Shown here piece after piece: positions 1 to 6,281 of a stretch of DNA of 6,391 bases. Numbering within the stretch: position 1 is the stretch's first letter; each line of letters opens with the position of its first letter. Location of the stretch: IMG/VR virus record IMGVR_UViG_2778261391_000004; one strand, written 5' to 3'. Source of the stretch: a virus (taxonomy: Duplodnaviria; Heunggongvirae; Uroviricota; Caudoviricetes). Under the pieces are notes generated by a model. It saw nothing but the letters and a program-made list of their open reading frames with translations, had not been told where the DNA came from and did no database searches. The position numbers were made by a program, and so were the translations under genes.

Positions 1-1038
1 AGTAAAACCGTTCAGCTTAATCACGGCTGGAACGATGAGGCATTTAATCCAAAGGATGCGCAGCGTTATCTCTGCCGCATCTGGAGCCTGATGCGCACGG
101 CATTCAAGGATAATGATTTACAGGTCTACGGTTTGCGTGTCGTCGAGCCACACCACGACGGAACGCCGCACTGGCATATGATGCTTTTTTGTAATCCACG
201 CCAGCGTAACCAGATTATTGAAATCATGCGTCGTTATGCGCTCAAAGAGGATGGCGACGAAAGAGGAGCCGCGCGAAACCGTTTTCAGGCAAAACACCTT
301 AACCGGGGCGGTGCTGCGGGATATATCGCGAAATACATCTCAAAAAATATCGACGGCTATGCACTGGATGGTCAGCTCGATAACGATACCGGCAGACCGC
401 TGAAAGACACTGCTGCGGCTGTTACCGCATGGGCGTCAACGTGGCGTATCCCGCAATTTAAAACGGTTGGCCTGCCGACAATGGGGGCTTACCGTGAACT
501 ACGCAAACTGCCTCGCGGCGTCAGCATTGCTGATGAGTTTGACGAACGCGTCGAGGCTGCACGCGCCGCCGCAGACAGTGGTGATTTTGCGTTGTATATC
601 AGCGCGCAGGGTGGGGCAAATGTCCCGCGCGATTGTCAGACTGTCAGGGTTGCCCGTAGCCCGTCGGATGACGTTAACGAGTACGAGGAAGAAGTCGAGA
701 GAGTGGTCGGCATTTACGCACCGCATCTCGGCGCGCGTCATATTCATATCACCAGAACCACGGACTGGCGCATTGTGCCGAAAGTGCCGGTCGTTGAGCC
801 TTTGACTTTAAAAAGCGGCATCGCCGCGCCTCGGAGTCCTGTCAATAACTGTGGAAAGCTCACCGGTGGTGATACTTCGTCACCGGCTCCCACGCCTTCT
901 GAACACGCCGCAGCAGTGCTTAATCTGGTTGATGACGGTGTTATCGAATGGAGTGACCCAGAGGTCGTCAGAGTGTTTAGAAACACATTAAAGCATTATT
1001 TGCCAATGTTTACTCGGCAAGAGAAGATAAGTGGCTAG
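1..1038 (+). CDS. A: Replication initiation endonuclease gpA (rolling-circle HUH nickase), C-terminal part; 5' end lies outside the window
   Basis: Frame 1 is open from base 1 (SKTVQLNHGWNDEAF...) to the TAG at 1036..1038. It contains an HUH motif (PHWHMM, 169..177) and a YIAKY double-tyrosine motif (322..336) like the catalytic tyrosines of phiX174/P2 A proteins. Codon usage is GC-rich like the phage backbone. Confidence 0.9.
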   Translation, partial: SKTVQLNHGWNDEAFNPKDAQRYLCRIWSLMRTAFKDNDLQVYGLRVVEPHHDGTPHWHMMLFCNPRQRNQIIEIMRRYALKEDGDERGAARNRFQAKHLNRGGAAGYIAKYISKNIDGYALDGQLDNDTGRPLKDTAAAVTAWASTWRIPQFKTVGLPTMGAYRELRKLPRGVSIADEFDERVEAARAAADSGDFALYISAQGGANVPRDCQTVRVARSPSDDVNEYEEEVERVVGIYAPHLGARHIHITRTTDWRIVPKVPVVEPLTLKSGIAAPRSPVNNCGKLTGGDTSSPAPTPSEHAAAVLNLVDDGVIEWSDPEVVRVFRNTLKHYLPMFTRQEKISG

Positions 1039-1252: not shown

Positions 1253-1280
1253 TAGACAATGACTGATGTCATGATAGAAT
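1253..1280 (+). promoter_or_regulatory. Candidate sigma70 promoter for the methyltransferase gene
   Basis: -35-like TAGACA (1253..1258), 16-bp spacer, extended -10 TGaTAGAAT (1272..1280), about 40 bp upstream of the ATG at 1321. Sequence-only prediction. Confidence 0.3.
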
Positions 1281-1320: not shown

Positions 1321-2472
1321 ATGAATGTAGTTGATTTATTCTCTGGAGTTGGCGGTTTAAGCTTAGGGGCAACTCGAGCCGGTTTCAACTTGGTTGGAGC
1401 TGTTGAACTGGATAAACATGCTATTTTTTCACATGAGTTAAACTTCCCAAAATCAACACATTTGCATCGGGATGTCTGCTCGCTTACAGCAAAAGATATT
1501 TTGTCTGCATGTGCTGTAAAGGACATTGATTGCGTTATTGGTGGTCCACCTTGCCAAGGATTTAGCACCATTGGAAAAAGGAATGCCAATGATACAAGAA
1601 ATGAATTGTATATTCATTTTTTTAGGTTGGTAAGTGAGTTATCTCCAATTTGTTTTTTGGCAGAGAATGTTCCAGGAATTATGGGTGAGAAATATAATCC
1701 AGTAAGAGAAGAAGCATTTTCTTTAGTTAGAGATGGCTATTGTTTATTACATCCAATAAGGGTTAATGCTTCAAATTATGGAGCACCTACGACACGGACA
1801 CGAATATTTTTCATGGGTTTTAAAAGAGGTTTTATTAATCAGTTAAAAGAATCTGATTTTTTTCCTAAAAATATAATAGAGCAGACTCTTGTCAAAGATG
1901 CACTCTACGGATTACCGCGAACTATAAGAAAAGAGTGGCAGACAGAGGAGCAAGGCTGGCGTTCAGTAAAAATGGATAAAGATGGTTACTATTATGAGCG
2001 ACTTTGGGGACATATACCAAATGGTGTAGGTGATGCAGAATCCATTCAAAATTTAAAGAAAGGATTGGTATCTGGCTTTTTAGGTACAGCTCATTCGGAG
2101 GAAGTGCTCAGGAGATATAGACAACTTTCATTCGGTGAAACTGATAAGATTTCGAGATCACAACGACTCAATCCTAACGGTTTTTGTCCAACTTTGAGAG
2201 CAGGTACAGGAAGTGACAAGGGGAGTTATCAGGCCGTTAGGCCAATTCACCCTACTCAAGCTAGGGTGATAACTCCTCGTGAAGCAGCTAGGTTACAAGG
2301 GTTTCCTGATTGGTTCCGTTTTCATCCTACAAAGTGGCACAGTTTTAGACAGATAGGTAATAGCGTTAGTCCGCTTGTGGCTGAGGCTATGCTATTACCT
2401 TTATACGATTACTGTTTAAAAGTTAAAAAAGAATCTTTGAATACCATGGAACGACCTTGTAGTATTCGATAA
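1321..2472 (+). CDS. DNA (cytosine-5)-methyltransferase (Dcm-like C5-MTase)
   Basis: Long ORF with C5-MTase motifs in canonical order: motif I FSGVGG (1339..1356), motif IV GGPPCQGFS with the catalytic Cys codon at 1552..1554, motif VI ENVPG, and motif X QIGNSVSP near the C-terminus. The ORF track starts at TTG 1315; ATG 1321 is the more likely start. AT-rich codon usage. Confidence 0.9.
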   Translation: MNVVDLFSGVGGLSLGATRAGFNLVGAVELDKHAIFSHELNFPKSTHLHRDVCSLTAKDILSACAVKDIDCVIGGPPCQGFSTIGKRNANDTRNELYIHFFRLVSELSPICFLAENVPGIMGEKYNPVREEAFSLVRDGYCLLHPIRVNASNYGAPTTRTRIFFMGFKRGFINQLKESDFFPKNIIEQTLVKDALYGLPRTIRKEWQTEEQGWRSVKMDKDGYYYERLWGHIPNGVGDAESIQNLKKGLVSGFLGTAHSEEVLRRYRQLSFGETDKISRSQRLNPNGFCPTLRAGTGSDKGSYQAVRPIHPTQARVITPREAARLQGFPDWFRFHPTKWHSFRQIGNSVSPLVAEAMLLPLYDYCLKVKKESLNTMERPCSIR

Positions 2473-3415
2473 AATTACTTAGATCGGAGTTGGCTCCAGA
2501 AGGAGTGGAGCCAATGTAAAACCCTAGAGTTTCATGGATGTTTTCTACTGAAGCTTCGGGTAATAAAGATTCAATATGTATCCTTTCTTTTAAAGACATA
2601 GCAGGGACGTTTATATTTTTAGGATTACTCCACTTCCCATCATAAAATGGCCAATTCTTGATTCTGGAATTATCAATAAATTTAGCTTCTTCTGTATCAG
2701 TGTTTTCAAGAACGATAGCTGTTAAAGTAACCATCTGTTGGCCATCTTTATAAACGAAAGAAGTTAATGGATGTATTCTTATGTCATTTCGACCTTTTAA
2801 TCCATGCCCTATTGCGCGTCTCATAGCATTAACTAGGAGCATAGGGTATTTTTTAAATCCGACATCTTCGACTACTGCATTCGGTGGTAAAAAATCTTGA
2901 GTCAAAATATCGTTTATCTTTTGAAATCTATATGCTCTTGGATCTCGTTCGCTCGGGTTTTTTCCCAAGGCTTCAGGGTTTGCATTTAAAGTGATCTTAA
3001 AAATGTCTTTGGGTTTTAGCTTTGTAACCAAATTAACTATTTCATTTAACTGAGCATTTAAGTCTGAAGGCGTTGCATAATCTAACCATATGATCGTTTT
3101 ATCGTCAAAGTTATAGCGATTGATGAAGTCTCCGCTCATTTCTGGGGTATCACCCAAATTTATGCAAGATAATGGTTTGTTAAACTGTTGTCGGCAATGG
3201 ACATTTTTATCTCCTTCGATAGATATCATTTTAGTCACTTTTAACAAATTATGAATTTGTTTGAAATCTTCGAGGAAAGGCCCCCCGAATCCTATATATA
3301 CATATTCGGATATGTTTGTATAATTGTTTAACCTTCTTAGGGATTCTATAAATAGATTCCTTTCAATGGCTTTGTTTTGCCGCAAATGATATGGGATGCT
3401 TCCGCCAGTACTCAT
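2423..3415 (-). CDS. Hypothetical protein (330 aa), second gene of the GHKL-ATPase operon; candidate effector or partner of unknown fold
   Basis: Uninterrupted 330-codon ORF whose ATG (3415..3413) overlaps the TGA of the upstream ATPase gene (ATGA coupling), with an AAGG Shine-Dalgarno-like element upstream. It has the same AT-rich composition as its neighbours. It contains a glycine-rich YVYIGFGGPF segment followed by acidic strand-end residues (ISIEGD, IIWLDY), reminiscent of a Rossmann-like fold, but function cannot be assigned by eye. Confidence 0.6.
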   Translation of the reverse strand: MSTGGSIPYHLRQNKAIERNLFIESLRRLNNYTNISEYVYIGFGGPFLEDFKQIHNLLKVTKMISIEGDKNVHCRQQFNKPLSCINLGDTPEMSGDFINRYNFDDKTIIWLDYATPSDLNAQLNEIVNLVTKLKPKDIFKITLNANPEALGKNPSERDPRAYRFQKINDILTQDFLPPNAVVEDVGFKKYPMLLVNAMRRAIGHGLKGRNDIRIHPLTSFVYKDGQQMVTLTAIVLENTDTEEAKFIDNSRIKNWPFYDGKWSNPKNINVPAMSLKERIHIESLLPEASVENIHETLGFYIGSTPSGANSDLSNFIEYYKVVPWYSKILF

Positions 3416-4836
3416 TGTTTAGCCTTTTTTAGAAATTCATCAAAACAATATTGACCAACCTCTGTTGGTGGTTGAGTTGCATCATCAAAGAGAAACTCTG
3501 ACACCAGTTTTATTTCACTATGTCTACGGCTAAATTTTATCTGACGTAATGGATCCGAATCCCGAGGCATTGGTAGCTTCGGTTTGAAAACTTCTCCTCC
3601 TATTGAACGTCGAACGTTCGACCAGTTTTCTCTAGGAATTGATTTAGTAAAGTCGACCTCAGTTGTTGAAACCATATTGGATGCAGTATTAATAATTTGC
3701 TTTCTTTCCTCTGCGTTACTTTTCCATTTGTTGGTAAAGTCCGTGAAGAATTTTAAACCCTCGCGCATAAAATCTTTAGTAGAAAGATATAGCTCAGAGT
3801 TACCATCAACACCTCGTTTAGTTGTAGTGATAGGTAGTAATTCAGCATTTGATGATGTGAAAATAACAACACCAGAAATTCCGATGAATTGAGTATGATA
3901 TTGTGGAACTCCAGCTTCTCCCCAACCTGTAAGCTTGGTTTTATCCGCATGTAGGACTACACGATCATTGCATATAATTGTCCAACCAGCTTTTTCTGTT
4001 GTGGAACGGCCTGATAATAAATTCTCTTCTTCTTCCTCACTAGGCAAGTTACGATAAAATCCAACTGCAACTTTAATTGAAACTCCATTTGAATTATTTT
4101 TATATACATAAGGAGCAATGCCGTCGGTATTGCCTTTAATGGCTTCTTCATCAAATATTAAATTGGTGCTATTTGGCTTAACAATACATCCATTTACTTT
4201 AACCTCAAACCCTTTTTTAATGATTAAACTATAATGATTTGCTATGATATTAATCAAAACTTCTTCAAAGCCACGATCCTTTGATAGGGATGCTTTAATA
4301 TCTTTCCTTAAATTGTTAATTTGGATGCTGACGCCTGTTTCGTTTAAGTCAACATTATTTCGCTCTAACTCCAAAGACCAGTTTTCATCATCAGCCATCC
4401 ATTCAGGAGAAATGGTAACTGAAAATTGTTCGTTTTCAGTTTTGCTTAAAATCTGAGCAGATGTCCCCATTTTGAAAATCGCTCGTTTCATTCCGATACC
4501 ATATACACCAATTGTCGGGAGATCATCCGCCTCACGTTCTGCAGGTCTACCCAACCTAAACGCATAGCTTTCCGCAAGTTTTGCTGGAATACCTCCGCAA
4601 TTATCAGTTATTCTGAAACTATTCTCATCAAATTCAATATGAGCATAGTAACCCTTGTAAACGTCTGATTTACCGAAGGTTTGCTCTGGAGTGAAATTGT
4701 TTTTTCTTAATACACCATCTAGGCAGTTATCTAGTAAATCTAGAATTGAGTCAGACAACTCAATATCTCGGGTGAGCATCTCAACAAAGAATCTTTTTGC
4801 TGGAAATGCTGCTATTTTGACGTTTGACGAAACCAT
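3412..4836 (-). CDS. GHKL-superfamily ATPase, MORC/HATPase_c_3-like (474 aa)
   Basis: Bergerat-fold motifs in canonical order in the N-terminal 120 residues: N-box DLLDNCLDG (4717..4740), G1 box DNCGG (4591..4605), G2 box GVYGIGMK (4486..4509). AAGGA Shine-Dalgarno 6 nt upstream of the ATG at 4836. Long ORF with AT-rich codon usage. Confidence 0.8.
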   Translation of the reverse strand: MVSSNVKIAAFPAKRFFVEMLTRDIELSDSILDLLDNCLDGVLRKNNFTPEQTFGKSDVYKGYYAHIEFDENSFRITDNCGGIPAKLAESYAFRLGRPAEREADDLPTIGVYGIGMKRAIFKMGTSAQILSKTENEQFSVTISPEWMADDENWSLELERNNVDLNETGVSIQINNLRKDIKASLSKDRGFEEVLINIIANHYSLIIKKGFEVKVNGCIVKPNSTNLIFDEEAIKGNTDGIAPYVYKNNSNGVSIKVAVGFYRNLPSEEEEENLLSGRSTTEKAGWTIICNDRVVLHADKTKLTGWGEAGVPQYHTQFIGISGVVIFTSSNAELLPITTTKRGVDGNSELYLSTKDFMREGLKFFTDFTNKWKSNAEERKQIINTASNMVSTTEVDFTKSIPRENWSNVRRSIGGEVFKPKLPMPRDSDPLRQIKFSRRHSEIKLVSEFLFDDATQPPTEVGQYCFDEFLKKAKQ

Positions 4837-4859: not shown

Positions 4860-4889
4860 ATTTTCGCATTCATGCATAATGGCTGTGAA
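4860..4889 (-). promoter_or_regulatory. Candidate sigma70 promoter for the ATPase/330-aa operon
   Basis: On the minus strand: -35-like TTCACA (4889..4884), 18-bp spacer, -10-like GAAAAT (4865..4860), about 25 nt upstream of the ATG at 4836. Weak match, sequence-only. Confidence 0.25.
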
Positions 4890-5034
4890 CGAAGATTCGT
4901 CTTGATTAGGCGTGCATGATTTTGCATACAAAATGTATGAAAAAAAAAGCTGCCTGTCTATGACTGATAGCCGTCTAGTTACTTGGTTTTCAAGACAAAT
5001 GCGACTGCATCAAAACCGTCTCATGAAGCGGGCG

Positions 5035-5246: not shown

Positions 5247-6281
5247 TCAGTCGTTGTCAGTGTCCAGTGAGTAGTTTTTAAAGCGGATGACCTCCTGACC
5301 GAGCCAGCCGTTTATCTCGCGGATCCTGTCCTGTAACGGGATAAGCTCATTGCGGACAAAGACCTTTGCCACTTTCTCAATATCACCCAGCGACCCGACG
5401 TTCTCCGGCTTGCCGCCCATCAACTGAAAGGGGATGCGGTGCGCGTCCAGCAGGTCTGCGGCGCTGGCTTTTTTGATATTAAAAAAATCGTCCTTCGTCG
5501 CCACTTCACTGAGCGGGATAATTTTAATGCCGTCGGCTTTCCCCTGCGGGGCATAGAGAAACAGATTTTTAAAGTTATTGCGGCCTTTCGACTTAACCAT
5601 GTTTTCGCGAAGCATTTCGATATCGTTGCGATCCTGCACGGCATCGGTGACGTACATGATGTATCCGGCATGTGCGCCATTTTCGTAATACTTGCGGCGG
5701 AACAGCGTGGCCGACTCATTCAGCCAGGCAGAGTTAAGGGCGCTGAGATATTCCGGCAGGCCGTACAGCTCCTGATTAATATCCGGCTCCAGCAGGTGAA
5801 ACACGGAACCGGGCGCGAAGGCTGTCGGCTCGTTGAAGGACGGCACCCACCAGTAAACATCCTCTTCCACACCACGGCGGGTATATTTTGCCGGTGAGGT
5901 TTCCAGTCTGATGACTTTACCGGTAGTGCTGTAACGCTTTTCCAGAAACGCATTACCGAACACCAGAAAATCCAGCACAAAGCGGCTGAAATCCTGCTGG
6001 GAAAGCCACGGATGCGGGATAAATGTCGAGGCCAGAATATTGCGTTTGACGTAAATCGGCGAGCTGTGATGCACGGCAGCACGCAGGCTTTTCGCCAGAC
6101 CGGTAAAGCTGACCGGCGGCTCATACCATCTGCCGTTACTGATGCACTCGACGTAATCCAGAATGTCACGGCGGTCGAGTACCGGCACCGGCTCACCAAA
6201 GGTGAATGCCTCCATTTTCGGGGCGCTGGCGGTCATTTTTTTTGCCGCAGGTTGCGGTGTTTTCCCTTTTTTCTTGCTCAT
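5247..6281 (-). CDS. Q: Portal protein gpQ (capsid portal vertex protein)
   Basis: 344-aa ORF (MSKKKGKTPQPAAKK...DTDND) that I recognise as the P2 Q protein. GC-rich backbone composition, followed by a terminator and positioned next to cos as in P2. Confidence 0.95.
   Translation of the reverse strand: MSKKKGKTPQPAAKKMTASAPKMEAFTFGEPVPVLDRRDILDYVECISNGRWYEPPVSFTGLAKSLRAAVHHSSPIYVKRNILASTFIPHPWLSQQDFSRFVLDFLVFGNAFLEKRYSTTGKVIRLETSPAKYTRRGVEEDVYWWVPSFNEPTAFAPGSVFHLLEPDINQELYGLPEYLSALNSAWLNESATLFRRKYYENGAHAGYIMYVTDAVQDRNDIEMLRENMVKSKGRNNFKNLFLYAPQGKADGIKIIPLSEVATKDDFFNIKKASAADLLDAHRIPFQLMGGKPENVGSLGDIEKVAKVFVRNELIPLQDRIREINGWLGQEVIRFKNYSLDTDND

Follow-up and report, generated by a model that had tools for sequence, protein, structure and literature searches.

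The window analyzed here, a 6,391-nucleotide stretch of the Caudoviricetes record IMGVR_UViG_2778261391_000004 in IMG/VR, is a P2-type prophage segment with an AT-rich three-gene insert between its gpA and portal genes. The insert encodes a C5-cytosine methyltransferase (Dcm; 1315/1321-2472, plus strand), a 474-aa GHKL ATPase (3412-4836, minus strand) and the subject of this study, a 330-aa open reading frame (ORF; 2423-3415, minus strand). We found that the product of this ORF, here called MT35, is a full-length member of Pfam family PF20553 (Methyltransf_35) and, in a confident structural model, a class I Rossmann protein with the fold of S-adenosylmethionine (SAM) methyltransferases. Its gene is translationally coupled to that of the ATPase, which belongs to the MORC family and accompanies MT35 in every species genome that we compared. 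The interpretation that we favor, to which we give roughly an even chance, is that MT35 binds SAM, is probably active and works with MORC in a cassette resembling a restriction-modification (RM) system without a recognizable nuclease.

Family, fold and conserved residues of MT35

The MT35 gene (2423..3415, minus strand) starts with ATG and encodes an N-terminal helix, a core with the predicted fold of class I Rossmann SAM methyltransferases and a helical domain at the C terminus. As the original prediction had proposed, it is coupled to the GHKL ATPase gene. The ATG (3415-3413) shares nucleotides with the TGA (3414-3412) that ends the 474-aa ORF, in an ATGA junction (3412..3415, minus strand) that was read directly in the sequence, and an AAGG Shine-Dalgarno-like element lies ~9 nt upstream of the start. 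A stop-start overlap of 4 nt recurred in 63 of 79 related loci.

The original prediction recognized no family for this protein, which proved wrong. MT35 matches PF20553, described in Pfam as ‘Putative O-methyltransferase’, at 286.1 bits (E = 4.6e-85; cutoff 27 bits), with residues 3-328 spanning profile positions 2-307 of 309. It is also matched by phrog_19983, a PHROG without annotated function (E = 6.6e-164), and is named ‘O-methyltransferase’ in RefSeq (WP_029401228). Relative to these entries MT35 is a full member with the same length and single-domain architecture, and we saw no difference. One search returned 422 homologues, an exhaustive profile search yielded 1,975 cluster representatives at 50% identity and homologues were located in 80 species genomes from many phyla; family score, homologue counts and species spread place the gene far beyond chance. 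Because every one of the best 150 among the 1,975 is a stand-alone protein of ~330 aa (range 211-381 aa), the family offers no informative (Rosetta-stone) fusions. All 37 diverse homologues that we aligned matched PF20553 and none significantly matched another Pfam family; two winged-helix matches to the C-terminal region were insignificant (E = 0.06 and 0.18). Neither MT35 nor the ATPase has a match in NCBIfam or PADLOC, a TcmP-type partner-protein model included. Searches of the PDB with phmmer and with hmmsearch using the family profile returned no meaningful solved relative.

An AlphaFold2 model built from 23 homologues was confident (predicted local distance difference test 90.1, predicted template modeling score 0.88). 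It comprises an N-terminal helix, a seven-stranded Rossmann-like core of the kind that defines class I SAM methyltransferases, a ~65-residue helical insertion between β5 and β6 and a helical C-terminal domain (240-328). In the fold search called for by the original prediction, the methyltransferase fold extended across the whole core. The best structural neighbors were nucleic-acid methyltransferases, and small-molecule enzymes (geranyl-diphosphate and COMT-like methyltransferases) scored slightly lower. Among the closest were Trm1, the tRNA m2,2G26 methyltransferase (PDB 3axs/3axt, 2dul), and RsmD/RlmI-type RNA base methyltransferases, which share ~10% sequence identity with MT35 and have no sequence-level match to it in PDB and Pfam searches. 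MT35 differs from these enzymes in its β5/β6 insertion, in an invariant N-terminal motif of its own, in a motif IV that reads LD[YF] where theirs reads DPF or DPPF (in Trm1 the motif is a reduced D-P-F) and in being encoded with a MORC ATPase rather than as a housekeeping RNA-modification gene.

Conservation was assessed in an alignment of 37 members from >10 phyla with 25-49% identity. Fourteen residues are invariant: Y9, N14, K15, R19, Y40, E67, R75, Q76, W110, D112, Y222, D224, P271 and E277. They include the conserved acidic residues that the original prediction had recommended looking for (E67, D112, D224 and E277). The most conserved stretch of the family is the N-terminal motif Y9-H-L-R-x-N14-K15-A-x-x-R19 (3359..3391, minus strand), in which conservation reaches at least 90% at H10, L11, R12 and A16 and which, by comparison with nucleic-acid methyltransferases of class I, would line the active-site or cofactor pocket. 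Motif I, G42-F-G44-G45-P-F-L-E49-D50 (3266..3292, minus strand), was assigned from conservation and modeled secondary structure to the glycine loop after β1 (39-43), with at least 90% conservation at G42, G44, G45, E49 and D50. E67 (3215..3217, minus strand), invariant in both alignments checked, ends β2 (strand 62-66) as the motif II acidic residue. In class I methyltransferases, the ribose hydroxyls of SAM are canonically bound by an acidic residue at this place, and MT35 combines it with the glycine-rich motif I, as a SAM-binding protein does. At the motif IV position, at the end of β4 (strand 107-113), stands W110-L-D112-Y113 (3077..3088, minus strand), with W110 and D112 invariant and residue 113 Y or F in 37 of 37 sequences.

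These positions correspond to the strand-loop strings listed in the original prediction, all of which are present (YVYIGFGGPF at residues 38-47, ISIEGD at 64-69, IIWLDYATP at 108-116) and can be equated with motifs I, II and IV because of the conservation pattern of their residues. The suggestion drawn from them, a SAM- or nucleotide-binding Rossmann protein akin to methyltransferases, is supported by the fold and by the three motifs. Its further notion of a degenerate enzyme is not favored, as the motif residues are invariant or at least 90% conserved; this pattern points to a protein that binds its cofactor and is probably catalytic.

The same data bear on the leading idea in the original prediction, that MT35 is an effector such as a divergent nuclease. 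RM logic predicts a cleavage effector and the system holds no other candidate nuclease, but the confident model is a methyltransferase fold over the whole core, the C-terminal domain is helical and no nuclease family is matched in Pfam, NCBIfam, PADLOC or the PDB. Just as no convincing PD-(D/E)xK motif had been called by eye, no PD-(D/E)xK, HNH or GIY-YIG motif occurs among the invariant residues of the 37 members. A PD-(D/E)xK or other restriction nuclease was accordingly rejected, and we consider a nuclease the least credible of the explanations weighed here.

Other enzyme classes were also compared. Kinship with the rRNA m6A methyltransferase RlmJ (DUF519), suggested by an N-terminal likeness seen by eye, gained no support from an hhalign comparison with a single sequence (probability 0.35%). 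The K-D-K-E residues of RrmJ/FtsJ could have counterparts in K15, D112, a conserved basic residue at 140 (K/R) and E277 when sequence positions are compared; MT35 has no FtsJ family match, and the top fold matches include no FtsJ-type enzyme. A catechol-type, cation-dependent O-methyltransferase was rejected because the Asp/Asp/Asn metal triad is not conserved: D112 is its single invariant residue, distant family members carry R, K or V in place of N144 and the 37-member alignment contains no second invariant Asp at the expected position. Beyond PF20553 itself, no Pfam O-methyltransferase family matches MT35 or the 37 members.

The MORC partner and the conserved neighborhood

The upstream partner of MT35 (3412..4836, minus strand) is a 474-aa MORC-type ATPase of GHKL plus S5 architecture. 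It has all four ATP-binding motifs of GHKL proteins, an S5-fold domain bearing a basic finger and the motif GhXhhpXXRhl that is specific to MORCs, and resembles the DNA-clamping proteins MORC2, MORC3 and SMCHD1. In GHKL motif I, the general-base position (Asn minus 4) is occupied by an invariant Asp (D33-L-L-D-N37; D33 codon at 4738-4740), a position at which MutL has Glu. Judged from sequence, this Asp may make ATP hydrolysis slow or regulated.

In all 80 species genomes that hold MT35, the MORC gene lies directly upstream on the same strand. Conservation of the pair extends from Proteobacteria to Chloroflexota and includes one archaeon, and a search begun from the ATPase arrived at it again, in enterobacterial integrative and conjugative elements (ICEs). 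MT35 co-evolves with MORC and not with Dcm: the correlation between MT35 and MORC in pairwise identity is r = 0.77, against values of 0.29 and 0.36 when the two are compared with Dcm.

These relationships also bear on the family name. MT35 could be an ordinary small-molecule or protein O-methyltransferase whose place beside the ATPase has no DNA-related meaning, as the Pfam and RefSeq names would have it; geranyl-diphosphate and COMT-like enzymes do appear among the fold matches with slightly lower scores, and the isoelectric point (pI) of MT35 is near neutral (7.7; family median 6.6; Dcm 9.2). Against this stand the 80/80 MORC synteny, the translational coupling and the co-evolution, together with frequent Dcm and Vsr linkage and the absence of conserved biosynthetic genes nearby. 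The top structural neighbors are nucleic-acid methyltransferases, positions two and three of a COMT-type triad are not conserved (N144 to R, K or V) and the database name lacks literature backing. We regard an ordinary O-methyltransferase as very improbable, and the ‘O-’ in the database name is without support.

Of the three proteins, MT35 has diverged fastest (median pairwise identity 0.32 versus 0.44 and 0.46), as one would expect of a subunit that serves recognition or is targeted by phage inhibitors. It might be a non-catalytic, SAM-binding sensor or specificity subunit that licenses MORC through base flipping or SAM sensing, with MORC as an effector that clamps or compacts DNA without cleaving it, analogous to BREX and to eukaryotic MORC silencing. 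The likeness of the partner to the clamps MORC2, MORC3 and SMCHD1, the lack of a nuclease in the neighborhood or the MORC model and the variable glycine loop of Bacillota members would fit this arrangement. However, the invariant, mostly polar residues beyond what SAM binding needs (Y9, N14, K15, R19, R75, Q76, Y222, D224 and E277) suggest a catalytic or substrate site, and the motif IV Asp and its neighboring aromatic residue are kept in every sequence. We consider such a non-catalytic sensor or specificity subunit unlikely.

The third gene of the cassette encodes a Dcm-type C5-cytosine DNA methyltransferase (1321..2472, plus strand) convergent with MT35, supported by PF00145 (E = 1.7e-59), TIGR00675 and PADLOC MTase_II (5e-100). 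RefSeq places its start at ATG 1321, and the mechanical ORF begins at TTG 1315. The protein is close over its full length to a solved ‘cytosine-specific methyltransferase’ (PDB 3g7u; E = 2.1e-154). Within the cassette, Dcm alone is matched in PADLOC, by generic methyltransferase models. The same Dcm lineage (~50-57% identity) stands beside MORC-MT35 in very distant phyla in which MT35 is 25-30% identical. To survey the surroundings, every ORF within 5 kb was clustered across the 80 loci. Dcm was adjacent in 65 of them, either convergent downstream or co-directional upstream as a Dcm-MORC-MT35 operon. Fifteen loci gave no Dcm match: ~7 of them are incomplete contigs and eight have complete flanks, most of the latter from cyanobacteria or Beggiatoa. 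The genes around Dcm-less loci either show no relation to one another or come from other defense systems. Recurrent accessories were Vsr (22 loci), a second, longer GHKL paralogue (~10), a 256-aa protein (six) and an HhH-GPD glycosylase (five).

This linkage raises another possibility, that the cassette serves modification only, with MORC-MT35 adding a second epigenetic mark to protect the mobile element from host restriction, or that the pair is a MutL-like helper of Dcm-linked very-short-patch repair. E. coli MutL, itself a GHKL ATPase, stimulates Vsr, and Vsr or an HhH-GPD glycosylase occurs in 27 loci; two of the three cassette proteins have a methyltransferase fold and none is a recognizable nuclease, and the cassette travels on a prophage and on ICEs. 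Yet Vsr occurs in just 22 of the 80 loci, MORC and MT35 co-evolve with each other rather than with Dcm and lack Dcm in eight complete loci, the site in the window is a hotspot known for defense genes and two loci (L056 and L081) have defense neighbors (MmeI TRD, HEPN, SNF2, DrmB-like MZB and CHAT/Trypco1). We judge such a role to be distinctly unlikely. A classical Type II RM system was also rejected, as no conserved nuclease gene lies beside the cassette in the 80 loci and no nuclease domain was detected in MORC or MT35.

Individual loci showed further variation. In Salmonella/Enterobacteriaceae ICEs (L082-L085, 6001-13170), a five-gene form reads MORC(468)-MT35(330)-Dcm(371)-second GHKL paralogue(588)-Vsr. 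A ScoMcrA-like SBD+HNH Type IV enzyme and the TraU/TraG transfer genes of the ICE lie next to it. The longer paralogue (~540-610 aa, HATPase_c_3 only) adjoins the Dcm or MORC gene, and it or the expanded form was also seen in L006, L010, L011, L013, L015, L021, L025, L029 and L033. The ~256-aa protein (cluster c4; L072:8814-9584, minus strand, and five more loci) lies beside the cassette without a Pfam match. By eye, its CxxC and D-H-x-x-P ... C-x-x-C-N motifs are reminiscent of HNH, and it could be an optional nuclease partner. In a myxococcal locus (L056, 239-11504), MORC-MT35 without Dcm sits inside a co-directional defense island with an MmeI-TRD fragment, a CBS protein, a SNF2 helicase, a Helicase_C protein of 1198 aa and an MZB (MrfA Zn-binding domain) protein of 626 aa. 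The match of the CBS protein to HEPN_Swt1 is weak (E = 0.001) and falls short of the Pfam cutoff, and the Helicase_C and MZB proteins presumably resemble DrmA and DrmB of DISARM. In three Nostoc/Scytonema loci (L019, L022 and L024, ~3100-10400), inspection of the sequence placed the pair between ndhF-like and ndhD-like genes; no Dcm lies within 5 kb there, so MORC-MT35 can persist without a linked methylase. Cluster c6 of the ORF survey was set aside as housekeeping ndhF/ndhD.

Prophage setting and candidate control signals

The left border of the hotspot in the window is the 3' part of gpA, the P2-type replication endonuclease gene (91..1038, plus strand; PF05840 Phage_GPA, E = 1.6e-39; RefSeq annotation), and the right border is the P2-type portal gene gpQ (5247..6281, minus strand; TIGR01540 portal_PBSX, E = 1.2e-74; RefSeq annotation). 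GC content is ~0.36 in the insert versus ~0.53 in the flanks, falling from ~0.55 to ~0.36 past position ~1000. The gpA ORF (window 91-1038; L001 3876-5927) extends ~225 aa past the end of the Phage_GPA profile into the AT-rich insert. In strain ECJXMCRH7, RefSeq marks gpA as partial or pseudogenized (‘missing C-terminus’) and the large terminase there is frameshifted; the host prophage may therefore be defective.

The cassette is a moron in a P2 prophage hotspot known for defense genes. It was present at 99% identity in 46 of 5,426 complete E. coli genomes in RefSeq and in none of the sequenced phage genomes searched, in which matches were limited to the cos-proximal P2 backbone. Further cassettes in P2 hotspots pair Dcm with HATPase_c_3 proteins and other partners (PMC9122126, supplementary file 6), and GHKL-plus-Dcm modules may represent a broader class in E. 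coli prophages.

Several candidate control signals were noted. Upstream of the MORC start, two sigma-70-like matches (4960-4932 and 4889-4860, within 4860..4960, minus strand; 9/12 each) are candidate promoters of the MORC-MT35 operon; the region contains 16 such matches by consensus matching, not far above the shuffled expectation of 11.6. Dcm is preceded by a promoter-like consensus match with an extended -10 element (1253..1280, plus strand; TAGACA-16-TAGAAT, 10/12, TG before the -10 hexamer). A strong terminator-like hairpin (5241-5226) lies near the portal gene. According to the ORF coordinates, the MT35 and Dcm genes overlap at their convergent 3' ends by 50 nt (2423..2472, both strands), and a terminator scan found no terminator-like site within this overlap. 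Overlaps of 6 to 50 nt occurred in eight of 15 convergent loci (L002, L003, L004, L007, L008, L014, L033 and L035). An overlap without a terminator suggests transcriptional interference or antisense control between Dcm and the MORC-MT35 operon.

Proposed mechanism and significance

In our working model of an RM-like cassette, a physical complex, catalytic activity, a nucleic-acid substrate, a defense function and the order of events are what we infer. MT35 would be made in fixed proportion with the upstream-encoded MORC ATPase and most likely be bound to it; its fold, most like those of RNA/DNA base methyltransferases, would have it act on nucleic acid. The pair would constitute an ancient two-gene module, joined in most genomes by a C5-cytosine methylase and often by a T:G mismatch repair gene (Vsr or HhH-GPD glycosylase). 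Dcm would mark resident (self) DNA, and an ATP-driven MORC dimer would clamp DNA lacking the mark. MT35 with SAM would then act on the clamped nucleic acid, by adding a blocking methyl group or by reading a flipped base, and replication or expression of the invader would be halted without cleavage. A bolder reading goes further and makes MORC-MT35 a module for nuclease-free restriction: MORC would clamp unmarked DNA that MT35 either chemically marks or lesions, or reads so that MORC compacts it, and the invader would be silenced rather than cut. We think this bolder reading unlikely.

Several observations weigh against an active MT35 in an RM-like cassette. Amino-methyltransferases carry (D/N/S)PP(Y/F/W) at motif IV; in MT35 the motif is WLD[YF], with both prolines missing, and not the canonical DPPY or DPPF. 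Two Bacillota members have altered glycine loops (GFGSWAFDD and GFGSYEFDE), and the near-neutral pI does not favor strong DNA binding by MT35 alone. No nuclease gene is conserved within 5 kb across the 80 loci and no nuclease domain is visible in the MORC model, so harm to an invader has no assigned actor. Because eight loci with complete flanks lack Dcm, MORC-MT35 can exist without an adjacent protective methylase. The promoter candidates rest on consensus matches, and neither MT35 nor the MORC ATPase matches PADLOC-DB v2.0.0 at E ≤ 1. Our literature searches found PF20553 or Methyltransf_35 named in no paper and no experimental work on bacterial MORC proteins; a domain-centric screen for E. 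coli defense systems does not mention GHKL.

One close precedent is a computational prediction as well. Iyer, Abhiman and Aravind (2008; PMC2292703) predicted prokaryotic MORC and paraMORC proteins in RM systems with Dcm, Vsr, helicases and nucleases, with a superfamily II helicase and a restriction-fold, HNH or HKD nuclease in ~70% of MORC operons. The cassette shares with these systems the MORC signature motif, the GHKL+S5 architecture and the linkage to Dcm and Vsr, and the second, longer GHKL paralogue in ~10 of our loci recalls their ‘MORC + paraMORC1 + methylase’ neighborhoods; this paralogue may be their paraMORC1. Unlike those systems, it has no helicase or nuclease, and its constant partner is a methyltransferase-fold protein of a kind not described in their text. 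VcSduA (paraMORC3) of V. cholerae is a validated anti-phage defense protein in which a GHKL ATPase clamp controls an effector (PMC12137116). There the effector is a fused PD-(D/E)xK nuclease (DUF4263) in a single gene without a methylase, whereas the effector or partner here would be a separate methyltransferase-fold protein. A further V. cholerae lead, WonAB, was dismissed, as WonA is an ABC ATPase. BREX likewise combines a methyltransferase-fold protein with an ATPase and has no recognizable nuclease; it distinguishes self from non-self by methylation and excludes phage without cutting, as we propose for the cassette. BREX has six genes and its large N6-adenine methyltransferase PglX also modifies the host. 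The proteins are unrelated, a separate Dcm would supply the host mark here and the ATPase belongs to the GHKL/MORC kind, which limits the likeness to mechanistic analogy.

What is new relative to predicted MORC-associated RM systems is the combination of a methyltransferase-fold partner with no recognizable nuclease, and the cassette raises the question of how an RM-like system could operate in this way. Because it is small (three genes, ~3.5 kb), resides in E. coli, occupies a validated defense hotspot and has a conserved core pair, it provides a practical entry point to bacterial MORC function. The eukaryotic MORC ATPases, which act with DNA methylation to silence transposons, are proposed to descend from bacterial MORCs. 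If invaders are indeed silenced as outlined above, the module would be a prokaryotic counterpart, and possibly an ancestor, of that silencing, and would for the first time assign a function to PF20553 and to a bacterial MORC. The cassette could thereby give a function to a family of ~2,000 clusters labeled ‘O-methyltransferase’ without evidence and, even if it proves to be a modification module only, a misleading annotation would be corrected.

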